From the IMG/VR virus record IMGVR_UViG_643348546_000001: a stretch of DNA of 48,686 nt. The stretch is one strand, 5' to 3'. Positions 1,268 through 26,413 of this stretch are shown piece after piece. Numbering within the stretch: the stretch's first letter is position 1; every line of letters begins with the position of its first letter. The translations under genes and the position numbers were made by a program. This DNA is from a virus. Its lineage: Duplodnaviria > Heunggongvirae > Uroviricota > Caudoviricetes. The notes beneath the pieces were generated by a model that was given only the letters and a program-made list of their open reading frames with translations, searched no databases and was not told the DNA's origin.

Positions 1268-1561
1268 CGCAAAGTCTCCGCAATTACACGCAAGAAAAAA
1301 CCGCCATCAGGCGGCTTGGTGTTCTTTCAGTTCTTCAATTCGAATATTGGTTACGTCTGCATGTGCTATCTGCGCCCACAGCATCCAGTGGTCATAGCAG
1401 TCGCTGATGTTCTCGGCTTCGATAACTCTGTTGAATGGTTCTCCATTCTATTCACCTGTAACTCGGAAGTGCATTTATCATCGCCATAAAACAAAACTCG
1501 CCGTAGCGAGTTCAGATAAAAGAAAACCCGCATGACCTGCCCCCACGATTAGATACAACAC

Positions 1562-2395
1562 TCAGTTAGTAACGTCGGAATCTTCATTCTCAGAATGACC
1601 CTTTCTCCAGCCCGCTGCAAATTCAGACGGTGTCTGATAATTCAGCGTGGAGTGCGGGCGGCATTCGTTATAATCCTGCCGCCAGTCATTAATAATTTTC
1701 CTGGCATGAACGATATCGCTGAACCAGTGCTCATTCAAACATTCATCGCGAAATCGTCCGTTAAAGCTCTCAATAAATCCGTTCTGCGTTGGCTTGCCCG
1801 GCTGGATTAAGCGCAACTCAACACCATGCTCAAAGGCCCATTGATCCAGTGCACGGCAAGTGAACTCCGGCCCCTGGTCAGTTCTTATCGTCGCCGGATA
1901 GCCTCGAAACAGTGCAATGCTGTCCAGAATACGCGTGACCTGAACGCCTGAAATCCCAAAGGCAACAGTGACCGTCAGGCATTCCTTTGTGAAATCATCG
2001 ACGCAGGTAAGACACTTGATCCTGCGACCGGTGGAAAGTGCGTCCATGACGAAATCCATCGACCAGGTCAGATTGGGCGCCGCCGGACGGAGCAGCGGCA
2101 GACGTTCTGTTGCCAGCCCTTTACGACGTCTTCTGCGTTTTACGCCCAGGCCACTGAGGTGATAAAGCCGGTACACGCGCTTATGATTAACATGAAGCCC
2201 TTCACGGCGCAGCAACTGCCAAATACGACGGTAGCCAAAACGCCTGCGCTCCAGTGCCAGCTCAGTGATGCGCCCTGATAAATGCGCATCAGCAGCCGGA
2301 CGGTGAGCCTCATAGCGGCAGGTCGACAGGGATAAACCTGTAAGCCTGCAGGCACGACGTTGCGACAGACCGGTCGCATCACACATCAACATCAC
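1562..2395 (-). CDS. IS3-family transposase OrfB (DDE integrase-like catalytic domain)
   Basis: 277-aa ORF with a non-ATG (GTG) start; its frame is open upstream to about 2455 and overlaps the orfA end in the -1 frame, consistent with programmed frameshifting; DDE-type motifs ([15 protein letters not shown]). Confidence 0.85.
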
Positions 2396-2418
2396 GGCTT
2401 CCCGCTTCTGGTCTGTCG

Positions 2419-2682
2419 TCAGTACTTTCGCCCAAGAGCCACCTGAAGCGCCTCTTTATCCAGCATGGCTTCGGCAAGCAGCTTCTTGAGTCTGGCGTTC
2501 TCTTCCTCAAGCGACTTCAGGCGCTTAACTTCAGGCACCTCCATACCGCCATACTTCTTACGCCAGGTGTAAAACGTGGCATCGGAAATGGCATGCTTGC
2601 GGCAGAGTTCACGGGCGGGTACCCCAGCTTCGGCTTCGCGGAGAATACTGATGATCTGTTCGTCGGAAAAACGCTTCTTCAT
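2419..2682 (-). CDS. IS3-family transposase OrfA (HTH DNA-binding, leucine-zipper-like C-terminus)
   Basis: 87-aa ORF; HTH-like N-terminus and heptad leucines ([20 protein letters not shown]) typical of IS3-family OrfA. Confidence 0.85.
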
Positions 2683-2788
2683 GGGGATGTCCTCATGTGG
2701 CTTATGAAGACATTACTAACATCGGGGTGTACTAATCAACGGGGAGCAGGTCACGCACTCGGCGGGTTCGCATTCGTTCAAATTGCGT

Positions 2789-3070
2789 TTACTTCTTGGC
2801 GTTCTGTTCATCCATATCGATATACCATGGGTTGCTTCCCTTGGGCATGTTTAACGACTGCTCGCGATAGTATCTGATGCGCTCCATGAAATACTCGCGT
2901 GAGTGCTCAGGTTGCTCTCATGATACCTGCTCAGTGATAACAGGTATGTTAAGGCGCTCTCTGTACTCCATGCCTGATGCTGCAAGGTCAACGTTTACCT
3001 TGTTCTGTTTTTCTTTCGATTTCTCGGCGATGTTATGCCTGACATTGTCAACCCGCCTCCTTCTGAACAT
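2789..3070 (-). pseudogene. Small ORF (about 93 codons) interrupted by one in-frame TGA; divergent copy of the element at 15080-15328
   Basis: Translation [92 protein letters not shown]; aligns with the TGA-interrupted ORF at 15080-15328 but the stop lies at a different codon. Confidence 0.45.
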
Positions 3071-3332
3071 AACGGTTATAAATCAGTCCCTGAGGGCCAT
3101 AAGGAAGCGGGATGTGCAACTCCTCTGGTTCAGAAACTATCCATTCCCCGGCCATCTCCGCTGGAGAGGTAATGATAAGTTGTTTGCTAATAAAAGGACC
3201 ACTCCTCTCAACAACAAGCTTACCATCTTCATTAATAAAAGCTTGGATGTCAGGTGTGCTTCCACACTTGGTGATGCAGCGTTTGAACATTTTGTGTCCC
3301 CCCATTTTATGGACGGGGTAATTATAACACAT
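3048..3332 (-). CDS. Hypothetical protein (start uncertain)
   Basis: 94-aa ORF in the sense orientation of the leftward early operon; its C-terminus (NRYVQKEAG) resembles the C-terminus of the 250-aa protein at 14316-15068 (NNVYAPKKE). Confidence 0.3.
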   Translation of the reverse strand: MCYNYPVHKMGGHKMFKRCITKCGSTPDIQAFINEDGKLVVERSGPFISKQLIITSPAEMAGEWIVSEPEELHIPLPYGPQGLIYNRYVQKEAG

Positions 3333-3416
3333 TGAAATATAGTAATATTTGACGTAGATTTCTTTTGATCTATAAGCGATTTTTTAATGCTTTTAAGTTA
3401 TAAATACTTGTTTTCA

Positions 3417-3992
3417 TCACCCATCTTGCTGCGGTGCTACTATTGAAAAGTACTCACACCCTTTAGCCCAAATAGTTTTGATAGTTGTCCAACTGACTGG
3501 AACCTTGATTTCGATTCTTCCGCTGCCGTCACAAGTTTCGCAATCATCATCACCAAAGCATTCCGGGCAGCTTATAAACGTAGTTTCTGAAAATTCACCG
3601 GATAGCACACCCTTAGCGCCGTTCTCAGCGGTTAGTTTCTTCGGCACTATAACCCAACCATCCGGAGTTACCGGAGAGTTGCCATTTATATCGAAGTTTG
3701 GCTCTGCGTCCTGAACCAGGAGGATGTAACCATTCTTGGCAGTATCAAGTTCTAACGCCTCGGTGACGGTACCGAAATAGCGATTACCTAAATCCGCATC
3801 ACAAGTGCTTACATCAATGGAAACCTCCATGCCTTCGATTAATTCTGGCAAGTTGTAAGTTTGGCTTACAGGTTCTGCTCCCAGTGATGCCAGTGCAATT
3901 CGTGCCAGTTCCATTTGTTCGCCACGAGTAAGCCCGTTTTCAAGCGGATTTTTAATGAACAATTCAATACGTTCTTTGGTAATAGTGGTCAT
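3417..3992 (-). CDS. Hypothetical protein with C-terminal CxxC...CxxC zinc-ribbon-like motif
   Basis: 191-aa ORF in the leftward early operon; CPECFGDDDCETCDGSG near the C-terminus; no family recognised. Confidence 0.55.
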   Translation of the reverse strand: MTTITKERIELFIKNPLENGLTRGEQMELARIALASLGAEPVSQTYNLPELIEGMEVSIDVSTCDADLGNRYFGTVTEALELDTAKNGYILLVQDAEPNFDINGNSPVTPDGWVIVPKKLTAENGAKGVLSGEFSETTFISCPECFGDDDCETCDGSGRIEIKVPVSWTTIKTIWAKGCEYFSIVAPQQDG

Positions 3993-4002
3993 TTGTTAGT
4001 CC

Positions 4003-4758
4003 TTAAACTGCTAGTTGCAATTGCATTTCAAAGCGGTCGCGTTGTTCACAATACGCAAGAGAACCAGGGCTATTGTGTGCCTCAATCCGTTCTACCATTA
4101 ATGCTGCGCGTGTCTCTTTACTTGCAGGTGCATAAGCCCCAGACCAGGCTTTATCAATACCGATGTTTCGAGCGACGTTCGTACTATCTGCGCTGGCTAA
4201 GGGTAATTTTGTGAATATCAGCGGATTTAACATGCGCAATCCATGTAGTTTCGTAACCGGCTGACCATGCCCATCAACAATGTGACGAATCAGGTCTTTC
4301 ATTCTGGCTACCGCAAGAGTTGGGCGCTTTACGTCATAGTCGCCACAACTACCGATAGCCACTCGCGGAAACTCATTGCACAAATGAATAAATCGCTCGT
4401 CACTTTCATTCATGTGCCACACTGGAACGCCAGCTAGTTTTCCGTGAGGCCACTCATTCAGAAGCGCATCATTTTCCTCCTCTCCGCCATCAATAACATC
4501 CGGGATAATGGCAAAATCGAATCCTGGGTGATTCTTCCAGCGAGCAACAAAATCGTAGTAATCGCTCCAGTCGATTTTGTTTTTGCCAGCTGCTTTCCAG
4601 GCGGTGAATGCACCGTTGTCCAGCGCGAACGACTGACAGTATTCAGCCGCGAGATTGATCTGGCCTGAATGCGCAAAACTGATAAACGCATGTCGCCCTT
4701 TCCATGCTCTCATTGCGCACGTATCAGGAGTAATAGGCCCACCGTGGTAGTGAATCAT
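4003..4758 (-). CDS. Hypothetical protein (251 aa from the RBS-supported start)
   Basis: ORF 4003-4800; the internal ATG at 4758 is preceded by AAGGAG and sits 1 nt after the upstream gene's stop, so that start is preferred; no family recognised. Confidence 0.55.
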   Translation of the reverse strand: MIHYHGGPITPDTCAMRAWKGRHAFISFAHSGQINLAAEYCQSFALDNGAFTAWKAAGKNKIDWSDYYDFVARWKNHPGFDFAIIPDVIDGGEEENDALLNEWPHGKLAGVPVWHMNESDERFIHLCNEFPRVAIGSCGDYDVKRPTLAVARMKDLIRHIVDGHGQPVTKLHGLRMLNPLIFTKLPLASADSTNVARNIGIDKAWSGAYAPASKETRAALMVERIEAHNSPGSLAYCEQRDRFEMQLQLAV

Positions 4759-4759
4759 C

Positions 4760-5167
4760 TCACTCTCCTTTGATGCGAATGCCAGTAGCGCGGATTGCAT
4801 CGATGACTTCAGAAACTTTGTATGCCATTACCGTTTGGTAATCATCGTGAAAATCTGTTCGATGAAGCATGCTGCTACGTTCCGGGAGCAGTATTTCCCG
4901 CGCTTCCAATTCTGCAATGCGCTTTTTTGCTGCTTCCAGTGCATCCAGTAATTCCAGCACGGTAGCCGGATTAGCCTTGGCAACAAAATCCCGGACTGGC
5001 TTACAATCAATCTCCGCAATGGGTTGATACGATGTGTAGCCATGCTGTCTTGTATAACTACCGTGACGAATAACGAAAAAATCACCATTTATTTTTTTAG
5101 CCTGCCACTTATCTTCACCGGCTTTCTCTGCCGCTTCACGCAGTGCCTGAGAGTTAATTTCGCTCAC
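4760..5167 (-). CDS. Ea22-like protein (C-terminal Ead/Ea22 domain)
   Basis: 135-aa ORF; PATVLELLDALEAAKKRIAELEA and the C-terminal GIRIKGE match the remembered lambda Ea22 C-terminal region. Confidence 0.65.
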   Translation of the reverse strand: MSEINSQALREAAEKAGEDKWQAKKINGDFFVIRHGSYTRQHGYTSYQPIAEIDCKPVRDFVAKANPATVLELLDALEAAKKRIAELEAREILLPERSSMLHRTDFHDDYQTVMAYKVSEVIDAIRATGIRIKGE

Positions 5168-5385
5168 TTCGAACCTCTCTGTTTACTGATAAGCTCCAGA
5201 TCTTGCTGGCAACTGGCACAAGTCCGACAACCCTGAACGGCCAGTCGTCTTCGTTCATCTATCGGATCGCCACACTCACAACAATGAGTGGCAGATATAG
5301 CCTGGTGGTTCAGGCGGCGCATTTTTATTGCTGTGTTGCGCTGTAATTCTTCAATTTCTGATGCTGAATCAATTATGTCTGCCAT
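5164..5385 (-). CDS. DksA/TraR-family C4 zinc-finger protein
   Basis: 73-aa ORF with CCECGDPIDERRRLAVQGCRTCASC (CxxC-N17-CxxC); near-identical to the lambda gene at the same position. Confidence 0.8.
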   Translation of the reverse strand: MADIIDSASEIEELQRNTAIKMRRLNHQAISATHCCECGDPIDERRRLAVQGCRTCASCQQDLELISKQRGSK

Positions 5386-5483
5386 CTTTCATTAATCCCT
5401 GAATTGTTGGTTAATACGCTTGAGGGTGAATGCGAATAATAAAAAAGGAGCCTGTAGCTCCCTGATGATTTTGCTTTTCATGT

Positions 5484-5699
5484 TCACCGTTCCTTAAAGA
5501 CGCCGTTCAACATGCCGATCGCCAGGCTTAAATGAGTCGGTGTGAATCCCATCAGCGTTACCGTTTCGCGGTGCTTCTTTAGTACGCTACGGCAAATGTC
5601 ATCGACGTTTTTATCCGGAAACTGCTGTCTGGCTTTTTTGATTTCAGAATTAGCCTGACGGGCAATGCTGCGAAGGGCGTTTTCTTGCTGAGGTGTCAT
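5484..5699 (-). CDS. Lambda orf61-like small protein
   Basis: 71 aa from the ATG at 5699 (MTPQQENALRSIARQANSEIKKARQQF...); lambda-like position and sequence. Confidence 0.6.
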   Translation of the reverse strand: MTPQQENALRSIARQANSEIKKARQQFPDKNVDDICRSVLKKHRETVTLMGFTPTHLSLAIGMLNGVFKER

Positions 5700-5775
5700 T
5701 GAACAAGCCCCATGTCGGCAAGCATAAGCACACAGAATATGAAGCCCGCTGCCAGAAAAATGCATTCAGTGGTTG

Positions 5776-5967
5776 TCATACCTGGTCTCTCTCATCTGCT
5801 TCTGCTTTCGCCACCATCATTTCCAGCTTTTGTGAAAGGGATGTGGCTAACGTATGAAATTCTTCGTCTGTTTCTACTGGTATTGGCACAAACCTGACTC
5901 CAATTTGAGCAAGGCTATGTGCCATCTCAATACTCGTTCTTAACTCAACAGGAGATGCTTTGTGCAT
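5776..5967 (-). CDS. Lambda orf63-like protein (DUF1391 family)
   Basis: 63-aa [26 protein letters not shown]...; matches the lambda orf63 family. Confidence 0.65.
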   Translation of the reverse strand: MHKASPVELRTSIEMAHSLAQIGVRFVPIPVETDEEFHTLATSLSQKLEMMVAKAEADERDQV

Positions 5968-6128
5968 ACCGTCTCCCGTTTATTATTTATCTTCTCAGCC
6001 AGCCGCTGTGCTTTCAGTGGATTTCTGATAACAGAAAGGCCGGGAAATACCCAGCCTCGCTTCTTAACGGAGTAGACGAAAGTGATCGTGCCTACGCGGA
6101 TATTATCGTGAGGATGTTTCATCGCCAT
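5940..6128 (-). CDS. Lambda orf60a-like small protein
   Basis: 62-aa [34 protein letters not shown]... immediately downstream of exo in the early-left operon. Confidence 0.6.
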
Positions 6129-6799
6129 TGCTCCCCAAATACAAAACCAATTTCAGCCAGTGCCTCGTCCATTTTTTCGATGAACTCCGGCACCATCTCG
6201 TCAAAACTCGCTATATACTTTTCATTCCGCTCAATCACGACATAATGCAGGCCTTCACGCTTCATACGCGGGTCATAGTTGGCAAAGTACCAGGCATCTT
6301 TTCGCGTCACCCACATGCTGTACTGCACCTGGGCCATGTAAGCCGACTTTATGGCCTCGAAACCACCGAGCCGGAATTTCATGAAATCCCGGGAGGTAAA
6401 CGGGCATTTCAGCTCAAGGCCATTGCCGTCACTGCATAAACCATCGGGAGAGCAGGCGGTGCGCATACTTTCGTCGCGATAGATGATCGGGGATTCAATA
6501 ACATTTACGCCGGAAGTGAACTCAAACAGGGTTCTGGCGTCGTTCTCGTACTGTTTTCCCCAGGCCAGCGCTTTAGCGTTAACTTCCGGAGCCACACCGG
6601 TGCAAACCTCAGCTAGCAGGGTGTGGAAGTAGGACATTTTCATGTCAGGCCACTTCTTTCCTGATCGGGGCTTTGCTATCACGTTGTGAACTTCTGAAGC
6701 GGTGATGACGCCGAGCCGTAATTTGTGCCATGCATCATCCCCCTGTTCGACAGCTCTCACGTCGATCCCGGTACGCTGCAGGATAATGTCCGGTGTCAT
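6119..6799 (-). CDS. exo: Lambda exonuclease (Red alpha)
   Basis: 226-aa ORF near-identical to lambda Exo ([40 protein letters not shown]...). Confidence 0.97.
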
Positions 6800-8439: not shown

Positions 8440-8500
8440 GGTGATAATAGCTATTGCTATTGATGATATCAATACTTATTGCTATTGCTAGATGTGTTTT
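8440..8500 (-). promoter_or_regulatory. Putative PL promoter with operator repeats (OL)
   Basis: On the minus strand: -35 TTGATA, 17-nt spacer TCATCAATAGCAATAGC, -10 TATTAT; spacer and flanks carry the TTGCTATTGCT / TAGC-N4-GCTA motifs also found in the cI-cro intergenic region. Confidence 0.55.
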
Positions 8501-8644
8501 GATATTAAATATTTGATAGCAAAAAGAATTAATTTTGTGACTTGCATCGCATAGCGATAACTGAAGCGGGGTTGTGGTGGTTTTTTGAACGGTGTGTGTG
8601 ATGAGGGGAGGCAAAAGAAAACCCGGCACGGTGGCCGGGACGTT

Positions 8645-9157
8645 TTATTTCAAAGAAAAATTATGACTAGCGTATCTTGGAAGAAATTCATATAGTGTTA
8701 ATGTCTTAACGCCGTGAGAAGCAGCCGCATCCGGGATCATTATTCTTTTTTTAGGTTTGCCACCGGATGGTTTCTCATGGGTAATAATAGTATATCCATG
8801 TGTCATCGCATGGGCTATTAAAAAAGCATCTGCTTTTTCATGGCTTGCAAAATCAAACTTTGCCTTTTCGGTAACATCTAATTTAGTTGACCAATTTATT
8901 AACTTTGCATAATTTTCTATTGAACTATGCTCATCTTCGAAGAATGATGATGGTAACTCTTCTTTAATCCATTTACACAATGGATCATCTTTTGCACATA
9001 GTTCTTTTTTTACAGCATTAATGCTATAAATCAGACCATTAATGTGTAAAGCGAGAAGAAAATCCCAAAATATTTTGCAATAATTGAAGTTATATGCAAA
9101 GTTTTTTGCCTCTATGAAGACATTACTATCAATTAAGAATTTTCCATTATGAATCAT
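8645..9157 (-). CDS. PIN-like nuclease-fold protein (DUF4411-like), predicted toxin/effector
   Basis: 170-aa ORF; N-terminal FLIDSNVFIE and later acidic/Thr positions (ADAFLIAHAMTHGYTIITHEK) fit a PIN-like pattern; overlaps the upstream gene's stop by 4 nt; very AT-rich. Confidence 0.6.
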   Translation of the reverse strand: MIHNGKFLIDSNVFIEAKNFAYNFNYCKIFWDFLLALHINGLIYSINAVKKELCAKDDPLCKWIKEELPSSFFEDEHSSIENYAKLINWSTKLDVTEKAKFDFASHEKADAFLIAHAMTHGYTIITHEKPSGGKPKKRIMIPDAAASHGVKTLTLYEFLPRYASHNFSLK

Positions 9158-10293
9158 AGAGATTCTCGTTTTTTATAAAATTCAACAACTGTATCTGCTT
9201 TTACATTTAGCAGTACGCCTGCTTCCCTTAATGGTAATTGTTGAGACATTGCTTTGGAAATTATTATATTCGTAAGTTTTGGACTGTTACGAACAGGTAA
9301 TGTGTTAAAGAAAGAACCACCATTAGATTCTTTTTTGGGCTTATTGTAAGCTTGATCTTTAATTATCTCCAAAGTGTTTCTTTCTATCAAATCTAATTGT
9401 AACGCTTTGATTGCACAAGCGAAATCACTAACCTTAAATAACTTAGAAACCTCTTTTACTCGATAATAATTATTATCGCTGGATGCATTAAGCCAGAAAG
9501 ATTTGAAGAGATTATCAGGCATTAAGATTTCAGCAGCAACTTTATTACAAAAAGATTCTATGTTTTTTTCTGTGTCCCACCCAGAGACTCCATCGACTCC
9601 AAGCCAAAGATGAGCCACCTCATGAAATAATGTAAATACCTGCGCAGATAACGCGTCCGAGCTATTTACAAAAATGATCGGAGCAACGCTATCAGATATA
9701 CAGAAACCACGAAACTCTCGCGTGTCAAGTTTTCTTTTATTATTATTACCCACAACACCATTCTTGAAAACTAATACGCCAGTGTCTTCTATTAATTTTG
9801 CCACTTTAGAAAAATAGCTCTCAAAAGTGACATTTTTTATCTCTTTTTGTATATCAAAATGTATTGTGTTTGCTATGTCTGTAGCAACAACCTTATAATT
9901 TAATTTTCTATTAAATTTAAATTTACCAATAAAATCGAGTGGATCATCATTACCATTTTCTCTTAAATAGTCTTTGTACCACTCAAGTTTATATTCTATA
10001 TCATAGTAAACATCAAAAAAATCTTTTCCTAACTCACGGCTATTTATAGCTTGCCTTAAGTCAGGGATCTTGGGTTTGGCTGGAGTTGGTGGCGTTTCAA
10101 GAAATAAAAAACCGAAAGGGATTCCTCCAATTTTTGCCAGTTTTTCTGCTGCGGATTTACTTACCACTCCGTTAAGAAATTTATTAATCTTTTTGGGCAT
10201 GACTTGGTCAGCAAGAGTTTCGATAGAAACTCCTTGAGAATTTGCTATCCAATCAATCATCTTCCTAGACAATTGAAATTCAACCGCTGCCAT
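9154..10293 (-). CDS. HTH-domain / ImmA-IrrE-family (COG2856-like) zinc metallopeptidase protein
   Basis: 379-aa ORF; HExxH motif (FHEVAHLWLG) in the middle, HTH-like N-terminal segment; AGGTGA RBS 4 nt before the ATG; very AT-rich. Confidence 0.65.
   Translation of the reverse strand: MAAVEFQLSRKMIDWIANSQGVSIETLADQVMPKKINKFLNGVVSKSAAEKLAKIGGIPFGFLFLETPPTPAKPKIPDLRQAINSRELGKDFFDVYYDIEYKLEWYKDYLRENGNDDPLDFIGKFKFNRKLNYKVVATDIANTIHFDIQKEIKNVTFESYFSKVAKLIEDTGVLVFKNGVVGNNNKRKLDTREFRGFCISDSVAPIIFVNSSDALSAQVFTLFHEVAHLWLGVDGVSGWDTEKNIESFCNKVAAEILMPDNLFKSFWLNASSDNNYYRVKEVSKLFKVSDFACAIKALQLDLIERNTLEIIKDQAYNKPKKESNGGSFFNTLPVRNSPKLTNIIISKAMSQQLPLREAGVLLNVKADTVVEFYKKRESL

Positions 10294-22732: not shown

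Positions 22733-26413
<3,681 letters not shown>

Follow-up and report, generated by a model that had tools for sequence, protein, structure and literature searches.

Gene organization of the locus

Two adjacent minus-strand genes of a lambda-like prophage, situated at the E. coli attB-lambda, lie in the early region of the window (the whole 48,686-nucleotide stretch of DNA analyzed). The first is a 251-aa gene (4003..4758) encoding a zinc-less, minimal, singleton DpdA-like member of the tRNA-guanine transglycosylase (TGT) superfamily, and the second is a 191-aa gene (3417..3992) encoding an acidic mosaic exo-xis protein that combines an EaA-type leader, an HkaE-type acidic module, and a zinc-knuckle module. 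Both open reading frames had been reported at these positions in a sequence-only reading of the same DNA. They are co-directional and flanked by xis/int and by the TraR-like/orf61/orf63/orf60a/exo genes. Immediately upstream is a 135-aa Ead/Ea22-like gene (4760..5167, minus strand; PF13935, E 1.7e-16), which is translationally coupled to the dpdA-like gene: its TGA stop (4762-4760) is separated by a single base from the ATG of the 251-aa gene (4758-4756), and the ribosome-binding site AAGGAG, read directly from the minus strand at 4765..4770 (4770-4765 in the direction of translation), lies within its last codons, 6 bases ahead of that ATG. The strong ribosome-binding site and stop-start coupling described earlier are thus borne out. 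A longer frame of 265 aa opens at the ATG at 4800, but every homolog begins with MIHYHGG. The 191-aa gene starts 10 bases past the TAA that ends the 251-aa gene, and a TAAGGA sequence overlaps this stop codon.

The Ea22-like protein resembles lambda Ea22 over its N-terminal 28 residues (E 1.9e-7), with a further weak match to the last 17 residues of lambda Ea22 (47% identity, E 0.18). For the 191- and 251-aa proteins, BLASTP against lambda p35, Ea8.5, Ea22, orf61, orf63, and orf60a returned nothing significant, in agreement with the statement that neither resembles a lambda protein. The earlier placement of the pair between the insertion sequence (IS) and the Ea22-like/TraR-like genes holds as regards the early operon, but the IS (1533-2753, with a 4-bp target duplication) is not directly adjacent, being separated from the 191-aa gene by a pseudogene, which PGAP names DNA polymerase III subunit theta and which occupies the position of lambda ea8.5, and by an 80-aa ORF (3048-3290).

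On the coding strand from 2700 to 6200 no sigma-70-like promoter was detected, which fits expression from pL and speaks against an internal promoter or moron-type expression; for structured RNA, Rfam gives only the frameshift element of the IS in this region. Both genes belong to the exo-xis portion of the pL operon, which is variable and non-essential, as had been proposed, and this placement is supported by agreement with the published layout, a conserved orf60a-orf63-orf61-orf73-ea22 block with variable genes after it (PMC8614690).

Family assignment of the 251-aa protein

The 251-aa protein is very probably a member of the phage DpdA/TGT-like family. Residues 11-262 of the 265-aa frame match PHROG 887, "queuine tRNA-ribosyltransferase", with an E value of 5e-104, and tblastn showed 92.8% identity to BTP1 gp23, which carries the same annotation, and to the SPN3UB protein, together with 68% identity to the SfI protein. 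Significant similarity also extends to DpdA proteins that have been tied experimentally to DNA modification, namely MED16 gp38 (38% identity, E 3e-34), 7-11 gp32 (36%, E 2e-24), and the Iggy DpdA (25%, E 3e-5). All 26 of the BFVD matches at E<=1e-3 are either uncharacterized or named queuine tRNA-ribosyltransferase. The family comprises 1,582 clusters at 50% identity, and the gene is considered real for this reason.

Several libraries returned no support. No Pfam or NCBIfam family reached its cut-off for either the 251-aa or the 191-aa protein, with only weak matches listed; PADLOC gave no match for the 251-aa protein; and searches of PDB sequences, with phmmer and with two profiles, yielded chance matches only, with no TGT or DpdA among them. 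These negative results do not count against membership, since the same libraries miss published DpdAs: the Iggy and Vid5 proteins are also missed by Pfam, and the Iggy protein by PADLOC as well. Alignment of the family by hhalign with E. coli TGT alone, and with an 80-sequence TGT alignment built from genome contigs, was not significant; the sole local alignment covered the DxGxF motif, its best, non-significant segment pairing D47-NGAF with D89-SGGF of E. coli TGT, so that it does not prove which residues correspond. A Foldseek search of the PDB with the predicted model was not discriminating, as generic TIM barrels ranked first and TGT appeared only at ranks 29-31.

The closest known relatives are the singleton DpdAs encoded by phages of gamma-proteobacteria (group 3 of Hutinet et al.: BTP1 SIU02687, SPN3UB YP_007011024, SfI, HK106, 7-11, and SEN1; also MED16 gp38). 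The 251-aa protein shares 93% identity with the BTP1 and SPN3UB members, 68% with SfI, and 34-39% with MED16, SEN1, and 7-11, falls in the same length class (about 235-275 aa), and carries the same D-N-G-A-F and A-D-S-T motifs, likewise with no preQ0 genes alongside. BTP1, SPN3UB, SfI, and HK106 are "DpdA only" phages in the supplementary data of Hutinet et al. 2019 (PMC6884629). Genes for preQ0 synthesis are absent both from the annotation of the STEC313 prophage, which is almost identical, and from the parts specific to the window, and this puts the 251-aa gene into the same group. In BTP1, as here, the dpdA-like gene directly follows an Ead/Ea22-like gene, whereas the downstream position is taken there by an EaA dATP/dGTP pyrophosphohydrolase protein and here by the zinc-knuckle variant. 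There is no substantive difference at the protein level from the singleton DpdAs, the carrier being in this case a lambda-like prophage at the E. coli attB-lambda.

The 251-aa gene is therefore a member of an already catalogued phage enzyme family, and the finding is real but mostly known already. Its description as "unassigned" is correct for RefSeq alone, where "hypothetical protein" is the name in every entry listed, but does not hold for the phage literature, in which its orthologs had already been tabulated (PMC6884629). The allele, whose surroundings vary, is carried by 203 of the 5,426 complete E. coli genomes, the carriers including STEC and O121/O111 strains, and a gene of the 251-aa type is present in at least one Stx1a-converting phage (LC744180). 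The homology found is not to a housekeeping phage protein, because DpdA is an accessory modification enzyme.

Predicted active site and missing zinc site

In an alignment with the Iggy and Vid5 DpdAs, MED16, 7-11, and SEN1, the residues D47, G49, A50, F51, P112, H115, G136, H172, P186, D191, and S192 are invariant; the positions invariant in both DpdA1 proteins of this alignment (Iggy and Vid5) are all retained, and D87 is almost invariant in the clade. All putative catalytic residues are unchanged over a range of carriers that extends from phages of Vibrio and Pseudomonas to prophages of E. coli. The predicted active-site codons lie on the minus strand at 4620-4618 (D47), 4500-4498 (D87), 4416-4414 (H115), 4353-4348 (G136/S137), 4245-4243 (H172), and 4188-4186 (D191). 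In the structural model, D47, H115, G136, and D191 are located at the C-terminal ends of successive beta-strands, D87 two residues past the end of its strand, and H172 inside a strand. The order of these residues parallels TGT D102/D156/Q203/G229-230/D280, bacterial DpdA D95/D130/H181/G206-207/D256, and Cap10 D73/D122/K154/H226/D248; the mapping to TGT D102/D156/D280 is based on motif order, strand-end positions, and the non-significant hhalign segment rather than on structural superposition. Sequence and model together thus predict a catalytic Asp nucleophile, an Asp general acid/base, and a base-recognition Asp. There is no Cys/His cluster after D191 that would correspond to the TGT zinc site (CxCxxC...H). 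With neither this site nor a match to a curated family model, the protein, which is slightly acidic (pI 6.3), does not qualify as a canonical Tgt (PF01702) or a bacterial DpdA.

Comparison with better characterized systems places these features in context. Homology to the Queuovirinae-type DpdA1 proteins (9g, CAjan, Iggy, and Vid5) is detectable pairwise (E 3e-5, Iggy); the D, DxGAF, H, G, H, and DS positions are invariant on both sides, and the phage DpdAs likewise have a degenerate zinc site. Identity is, however, only about 19-25%, DpdA1 is about 60 aa longer through extra N- and C-terminal segments, its genes adjoin folE/queD/queE/queC, and the DpdA1 phages measured replace about 7.5-32% of G (Iggy about 16.5%). 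With the bacterial DpdA (PDB 7UI4), which belongs to the Dpd restriction-modification system, the 251-aa protein shares the order of active-site residues, and the Dpd modification, of low frequency (<0.1% of G) and with dADG as its final mark, resembles the one expected here. The bacterial enzyme, however, is about 410 aa long, has four insertions and a zinc site, and needs the ParB-like ATPase DpdB, and DpdC makes ADG; none of these is present in the window. Cap10 of type IV CBASS (PDB 9NTN) resembles the 251-aa protein in its zinc-less TGT fold and in a similarly spaced Asp/His catalytic pair, but identity is 9%, and Cap10 is a host defense component rather than a phage gene, acting with Cap9 and a CD-NTase that has an N-terminal GG-rich tail.

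Modular composition of the 191-aa protein

The 191-aa protein matches PHROG 60 (E 1.4e-41), is strongly acidic (pI 4.2, net charge -17.5), and can be divided into three parts. The leader (MTTITKER...ELARIALASL, residues 1-39; 3876..3992, minus strand) is common to EaA, HkaE, and DUF550/DUF551 proteins, including BTP1 EaA and HK620 HkaE, and PHROGs 3323, 660, and 10451 match residues 1-46; it also heads the PF04447/DUF551 proteins whose genes come after dpdA in other prophages of E. coli. Phage matches stop at 3872 or 3878, marking a recombination junction at about 3872-3878. The second part is a strongly acidic module (residues 40-115, net -12; 3648..3875, minus strand). In tblastn it matches the equivalent stretch of HK620 HkaE at 97% identity; P22-like EaA/DUF551 proteins carry it as well, and some jumbo phages have a version with about 50% identity. 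The C-terminal zinc-knuckle module (residues 116-191; 3420..3647, minus strand) contains a CxxC-x5-CxxC site (CPEC-FGDDD-CETC-DGSG, encoded at 3519-3569) in which C142, C145, C151, and C154 are invariant in 22 homologs, corroborating the zinc ribbon noted from the sequence; phages of Enterobacter, Klebsiella, Serratia, and Vibrio carry this module separately. The modules are near-invariant across many prophages, on which basis the gene is considered real. The AlphaFold2 model has a pLDDT of 34.5, because the alignment is near-invariant.

Residues 40-191, the last 150 or so, constitute the C-terminal domain of many PF13935 (Ead/Ea22) proteins, and the protein is acidic, as are the published Ea22 C-terminal domains; a match to PF13935 itself, the Ead/Ea22 signature, is nevertheless absent. 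With the MTTITKER leader, swappable modules, and a position downstream of ea22, its features are those of an EaA/HkaE-type protein, from which, as from Ea22, it differs in having no coiled coil, PF13935, PF04447, or DUF551 and in ending with a Cys4 knuckle. By its sequence it qualifies as an acidic EaA/Ea22-type mosaic accessory protein, shuffled independently of and separate from the 251-aa gene. The knuckle would most likely bind zinc, and the protein would most likely mediate binding to a host or phage partner, although the idea of a binding module is a guess. The best Pfam match was the weak Anti-TRAP/DnaJ-type motif (Anti-TRAP, E 0.68), and PADLOC gave a single weak match, PDC-M01B (E 0.015).

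The PGAP name "molecular chaperone DnaJ" stems from the adjacent CPECFG and CETCDGSG sequences, which resemble the CxxCxGxG fingers of DnaJ and Anti-TRAP. DnaJ has four CxxCxGxG repeats forming two zinc centers, whereas the two adjacent CxxCxG-type motifs here make up one Cys4 site; moreover, there is no J domain, no HPD motif, and no match to the DnaJ or DnaJ_CXXCXGXG Pfam families at E<=1. The 191-aa protein is not a chaperone.

Proposed function of the 251-aa protein and alternative readings

The whole reading that we favor, and consider probable, is that the 251-aa protein is a singleton DpdA installing sparse marks in DNA, accompanied by a separate accessory 191-aa gene; taken alone, the proposal that it modifies DNA in this phage has a similar, perhaps marginally smaller, chance of being correct. 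Judging from its position, the gene would be transcribed from pL together with the exo-xis genes at an early stage of the lytic cycle. By analogy with characterized relatives, D191 would serve as the aspartate nucleophile and D47 as the general acid/base, so that guanine would be cut from double-stranded DNA and swapped for a 7-deazaguanine base, either preQ0 or its amide ADG. This base must be host-made, the prophage having no synthesis genes, and would come from the FolE-QueD-QueE-QueC pathway of the host. Instead of bulk replacement, sparse dPreQ0 or dADG marks would be expected, at levels like those of the two relatives tested (0.02-0.13% of G). Such marks may act as a protective or self-like epigenetic signal against some nucleases; that they are motif-specific is a guess.

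The virion DNA of 7-11 and of MED16, both with a singleton DpdA, contains dADG at 50 and 354 per 10^6 nt, respectively, so that the two tested singleton relatives are modified at 0.02-0.13% of G, and the phage 9g DpdA, when expressed in E. coli on its own, draws on the host pool to insert dPreQ0 at 790 per 10^6 nt. Several points nevertheless argue against DNA modification: mycobacteriophage Orion, also with a singleton DpdA, lacks the modification; Hutinet et al. 2019 explicitly did not decide whether the singleton clade has changed its function; dADG gave MED16 little protection against the restriction enzymes tested; the slightly acidic 251-aa protein has no zinc subdomain of the kind that aids nucleic-acid binding by TGT and bacterial DpdA; and the bacterial enzyme additionally requires DpdB. 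A literature search for experiments on the lambdoid, BTP1, or HK106 DpdA found none. The earlier suggestion of an anti-defense gene stays reasonable for the 251-aa protein, as 7-deazaguanine in DNA protects other phages from restriction, but is weakened by the very low modification in the singleton phages tested and the minimal protection of MED16. For the 191-aa protein, whose sole informative features are its strong acidity and its single zinc knuckle, the evidence speaks neither for nor against such a role.

The same low values could instead mean that the protein is a DpdA homolog without biologically meaningful modification in E. coli, either drifting exo-xis cargo or a protein with a non-catalytic role such as preQ0 sequestration. 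This we regard as unlikely. Modification levels of 0.02-0.13% of G or zero in the tested singleton phages, the minimal restriction protection in MED16, and the presence of the allele in just 203 of the 5,426 E. coli genomes, with surroundings that vary, would all suit it. Against it stand the strong purifying selection across the 1,582 clusters, with every putative catalytic residue invariant, the intact frame with its consensus ribosome-binding site and translational coupling, and the fact that bacterial Dpd is a functional restriction-modification system with <0.1% of G modified.

Alternatively, the protein could be an active TGT-superfamily enzyme whose target is not DNA, exchanging or binding 7-deazaguanine on tRNA or other RNA, or handling protein conjugates like Cap10 and in that case, for example, interfering with type IV CBASS. 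The absent zinc site is shared with Cap10, as is a His about 20 residues ahead of the nucleophile Asp (H172/D191 versus H226/D248), the near-neutral to acidic pI gives no sign of a strong DNA binder, and divergence of the singleton clade was left open in 2019. However, sequence homology points to the phage DpdAs rather than to Cap10 or Tgt, the protein has neither the insertions with which Tgt binds tRNA nor the Tgt zinc subdomain, dADG is present in the DNA of two singleton-DpdA phages, and DNA methyltransferases lie near the dpdA-like gene in several other phages. No Cap10 operon (a QueC-like Cap9 plus a CD-NTase with an M(G/S)G(G/S)GG tail) was found in the whole prophage, and PADLOC found no match for the 251-aa protein. 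A non-DNA target is accordingly judged improbable.

A more speculative joint reading, to which we assign an equally small chance, would tie these threads to host defense. In one version, the zinc-less singleton DpdA of temperate enterobacterial phages would be no bulk hypermodifier but would use host preQ0 or ADG to write sparse, motif-specific dADG or dPreQ0 as bacterial Dpd systems do, thereby mimicking Dpd "self" marks; in the other, prompted by the closest structural match of the model being Cap10, it could intercept the deazaguanine-protein conjugates of type IV CBASS. The EaA-type dATP/dGTP pyrophosphohydrolase often found downstream elsewhere and the acidic zinc-knuckle protein found here would be further interchangeable counter-defense modules in the same slot.

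Least probable by far is a two-component system in which the zinc knuckle of the 191-aa protein supplies in trans the zinc/nucleic-acid subdomain missing from the minimal DpdA, or loads DpdA as DpdB does: the genes are adjacent, co-directional, and 10 bases apart, and a DpdA-like protein without the TGT zinc site has a neighbor with a Cys4 site, but the linkage is not conserved (only 29 genomes have the pair, compared with 200 that have dpdA and 171-514 that have the zinc module, in most cases in the absence of dpdA and joined to Ea22 or other leaders), a PF04447 dATP/dGTP pyrophosphohydrolase protein more often occupies the place after dpdA (101 genomes and BTP1), unrelated neighbors stand beside the dpdA-like gene in AH07, Eeyore, D453, MED16, 7-11, Epa33, and SEN1, and the strong acidity of the 191-aa protein is unlike a DNA loader. 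On these co-occurrence counts and varied neighborhoods the zinc-ribbon protein was rejected as a DpdA partner, and it is not a DpdA cofactor.

Significance of the two genes

The annotation gap has a practical side, in that a one-line RefSeq correction would flag possible DNA modification in temperate phages, at least one of them Stx1a-converting (LC744180). The role of singleton DpdAs is a question standing since 2019, and the copy described here resides in a lambda-like E. coli phage, where it is directly testable: E. coli produces preQ0, que mutants of the host are available, and recombineering is routine. If the DNA is indeed modified, sparse 7-deazaguanine marks could influence how temperate phages evade restriction and transfer genes, sensitivity to newly described deazaguanine-targeting glycosylases could arise, and induced lysogens could give signals in nanopore or SMRT data. 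Should the mimicry of Dpd marks prove true, lambdoid and P22-like phages could enter Dpd-bearing hosts. The 191-aa protein, for its part, mainly illustrates the assembly of exo-xis proteins from portable modules and shows that its automatic chaperone name is wrong.

Assignment of the 251-Residue Protein

The 251-aa protein encoded at window 4003-4758(-) is orthologous to a singleton DpdA catalogued earlier, a phage DpdA without co-encoded preQ0 synthesis genes. It gave no match in Pfam, NCBIfam, PADLOC, or PDB sequences, and matched PHROG 887 ("queuine tRNA-ribosyltransferase") with an E value of 5e-104. A tblastn search against phage genomes matched 132 records, the closest relatives being BTP1 gp23 (already annotated as queuine tRNA-ribosyltransferase) and SPN3UB at 92.8% identity each, Pantoea phage AH07 (88%), and SfI and Eeyore (68%), with Vibrio phages (60%), MED16 gp38 (38%, E 3e-34), and 7-11 gp32 (36%) more distant; the DpdA of Pseudomonas phage Iggy shared 25% identity (E 3e-5). 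The family comprises 1,582 clusters at 50% identity (E<=1e-3). Of 5,426 complete E. coli genomes, 203 carry this allele, which RefSeq names "hypothetical protein" in every match listed. BTP1, SPN3UB, SfI, and HK106 already figure as DpdA-only phages in the supplementary data of Hutinet et al. (2019), who reported that the singleton DpdAs of gamma-proteobacterial phages cluster apart and that their function "will require more studies". The description of both early-left genes as unassigned in the sequence-only reading holds for the 191-aa gene (window 3417-3992(-)) but, outside RefSeq, not for the 251-aa gene, whose family assignment was already in the literature. The practical value lies in correcting the annotation of the dpdA-like gene, and the prophage offers a tractable lambda-like system for asking what singleton DpdAs do.

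Alignment with the DpdAs of Iggy and Vid5 and the singleton DpdAs of MED16, 7-11, and SEN1 revealed eleven invariant residues (D47, G49, A50, F51, P112, H115, G136, H172, P186, D191, and S192), while D87 is nearly invariant inside the clade. In the AlphaFold2 model, a (beta/alpha)8 barrel with pLDDT 77 and pTM 0.76, D47, H115, G136, and D191 lie at the C-terminal ends of successive beta-strands, H172 lies inside its strand, and D87 two residues past the end of its own. Order and spacing agree with the published active sites of Z. mobilis tRNA-guanine transglycosylase (TGT; D102-S103, D156, Q203, G229-G230, D280), bacterial DpdA (D95...F99, D130, H181, G206-G207, D256), and Cap10 (D73-S74, D122, K154, H226, D248). 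An hhalign comparison of the family with TGT gave no significant score; its best local segment placed D47-NGAF against E. coli TGT D89-SGGF, and a relaxed, likewise non-significant alignment paired D87 with D143 and G136-S137 with G214-G215. The zinc site of TGT and bacterial DpdA is absent from the 251-aa protein, as it is from Cap10, and is degenerate in phage 9g DpdA. Within the DpdA family we regard the residue mapping as well supported; its extension to TGT we infer. Fold evidence was mixed: Foldseek against viral predicted structures was specific, in that all 26 matches at E<=1e-3 were uncharacterised or named queuine tRNA-ribosyltransferase, whereas against the PDB generic TIM barrels ranked first and TGT appeared only at ranks 29-31. 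The predicted structure is consistent with DpdA membership, and the decisive evidence is therefore taken to be sequence homology together with the conserved catalytic residues.

Proposed DNA Modification

None of folE, queD, queE, queC, or yhhQ is present in the prophage annotation, and E. coli itself produces preQ0. Phage 9g DpdA alone in E. coli has been reported to insert dPreQ0 from the host pool into plasmid DNA at 790 per 10^6 nt. Both singleton-DpdA relatives with analysed DNA carried dADG, amounting to 0.02% of G in 7-11 (50 per 10^6 nt) and to 0.13% of G in MED16 (354 per 10^6 nt), and bacterial DpdA modifies <0.1% of G. On this basis, it is proposed that the 251-aa gene would be expressed early, driven by pL, and that its product would transglycosylate DNA guanines with preQ0 or ADG taken from the host, leaving sparse 7-deazaguanine marks, at specific sites if a guess is allowed. 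As to whether such marks would protect the phage, most of the enzymes tried on MED16 DNA still cut it, and no modification was seen in mycobacteriophage Orion, which grows on a host devoid of preQ0. An attractive idea is that the marks may mimic the bacterial Dpd self-mark.

Genomic Neighbors of the dpdA-like Gene

A single unit formed by the two genes was rejected on co-occurrence counts and varied neighbors: both occur together in only 29 E. coli genomes, the dpdA-like gene in about 200, and the zinc module of the 191-aa protein in 171-514. In 101 E. coli genomes and Salmonella phage BTP1, the slot after dpdA holds an EaA-type protein in which the same ~40-aa leader is fused to PF04447, a dATP/dGTP pyrophosphohydrolase (MazZ/MazG-like) domain that often, though not always, has DUF551 behind it (comparison loci equivalent to window 3417-3992: L096:1393-2190, L097:1393-2190, L098:1408-2190, and L002:4267-5232). 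One can imagine a functional connection between a guanine transglycosylase and an enzyme that hydrolyses dGTP.

In other phages, the dpdA-like gene has unrelated neighbors: it lies between DksA-like and exonuclease genes (Eeyore), beside a C5 methyltransferase (Epa33), ahead of a replication gene (SEN1), or between ParB-like and RusA genes (AH07). It is a self-contained cassette, and its translation is typically coupled to that of whichever gene precedes it. In AH07 (L004:1182-2504), a Pfam scan found a ParB HTH domain in the upstream 440-aa protein, whose gene overlaps the 88%-identical dpdA-like gene by four bases; this neighbor recalls DpdB, the ParB-like ATPase needed by bacterial DpdA.

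Modular Structure of the 191-Residue Protein

The 191-aa protein is a three-part mosaic, consisting of a leader (residues 1-39, MTTITKER...ELARIALASL), a module (residues 40-115) 97% identical to the matching part of HK620 HkaE and also present in P22-like EaA/DUF551 proteins, and a zinc-knuckle module (residues about 100-191) that phages of Enterobacter, Klebsiella, Serratia, and Vibrio carry as a separate unit. The zinc-type site read from the sequence is indeed there (CPEC-x5-CETC), and similarity to Salmonella and Stx phages at the nucleotide level breaks off inside the gene, at window 3872-3878. Residues 40-191 are near-invariant whichever of at least six N-terminal parts precedes them, Ead/Ea22 coiled coils among these, and behave like one of the portable C-terminal domains of Ea22 type described by Donaldson and colleagues. 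The protein is very acidic (pI 4.2, net charge -17.5; residues 40-115 alone -12), and published Ea22 C-terminal domains are likewise acidic. PGAP names the intact ORF (window 3417-3992; L001:6118-6693 in a comparison locus) inconsistently as "molecular chaperone DnaJ" or "hypothetical protein", or splits it into a 137-aa DnaJ ORF and a "missing C-terminus" leader pseudogene; EaA-type genes in L096-L098 are split likewise. A DnaJ identity was rejected: the protein lacks both a J domain and an HPD motif, and its Cys4 site is a single one. Structure prediction gave no usable model (pLDDT 34.5). Our best guess, held with low confidence, is a zinc-stabilised acidic protein-binding module with a putative host target.

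Prophage Setting and the exo-xis Region

The minus-strand gene order is int, xis, a lambda orf55-like ORF, an IS, a pseudogene, an 80-aa ORF, the 191-aa and 251-aa ORFs, Ead/Ea22-like (135 aa), TraR/orf73-like, orf61-, orf63-, and orf60a-like genes, exo, bet, and gam. This is the exo-xis region, which has been described in print as a conserved orf60a-orf63-orf61-orf73-ea22 block with variable genes after it. Both genes belong to the variable set; their earlier placement in a variable accessory region is what makes the sequence-only interpretation partly right. BLASTP of both proteins against lambda exo-xis proteins bore out their lack of resemblance to lambda. The observation itself was correct: both ORFs are present, and the 251-aa gene carries its AAGGAG site (4770-4765, sequence read) and is stop-start coupled to the Ea22-like gene (TGA 4762-4760, one base ahead of ATG 4758). 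The 191-aa ATG follows ten bases downstream of the 251-aa gene's TAA, with TAAGGA as ribosome-binding site. Since no promoter-like site was found on the coding strand in window 2700-6200, this arrangement would fit read-through expression from pL. A terminator-like hairpin with a T-run (5445-5463(-)), just upstream of the TraR/orf73-like gene within the operon, could be a terminator of the tL type that transcription passes under N antitermination.

The Ea22-like protein (window 4760-5167(-)) clearly resembles lambda Ea22 over no more than its ~28 N-terminal residues (E 1.9e-7), its last 17, ending GIRIKGE, matching weakly (E 0.18); the middle of the gene differs and its 3' end holds the next gene's ribosome-binding site, a pattern in line with published accounts of mosaic ea22 genes in Stx phages.

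The window is a lambda-like prophage, and its first 20.5 kb, IS excepted, are 99.8-99.9% identical to the E. coli STEC313 prophage, which lies at the lambda attachment site adjoining ybhC. The IS3-family element (window 1533-2753, 1,221 bp, 4-bp target duplication; IS1222-type ribosomal frameshift element, Rfam, 156.6 bits), missing from that prophage, lies between the orf55-like ORF and the pseudogene, which PGAP names DNA polymerase III subunit theta and which occupies the lambda ea8.5 position. The portal gene is uninterrupted in the window, unlike the STEC313 copy, which is broken (at about window 25654-25666) by a ~11-kb satellite-like island (L003:25740-35620) carrying integrase, primase, major capsid protein, decoration protein, and small terminase genes. 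In the immunity region, a low-GC stretch (30-37%, window about 8500-10000) encoding a DUF4411 protein (8645-9157(-)) and an ImmA/IrrE metallopeptidase adjoining an XRE-type repressor looks like a foreign cassette.
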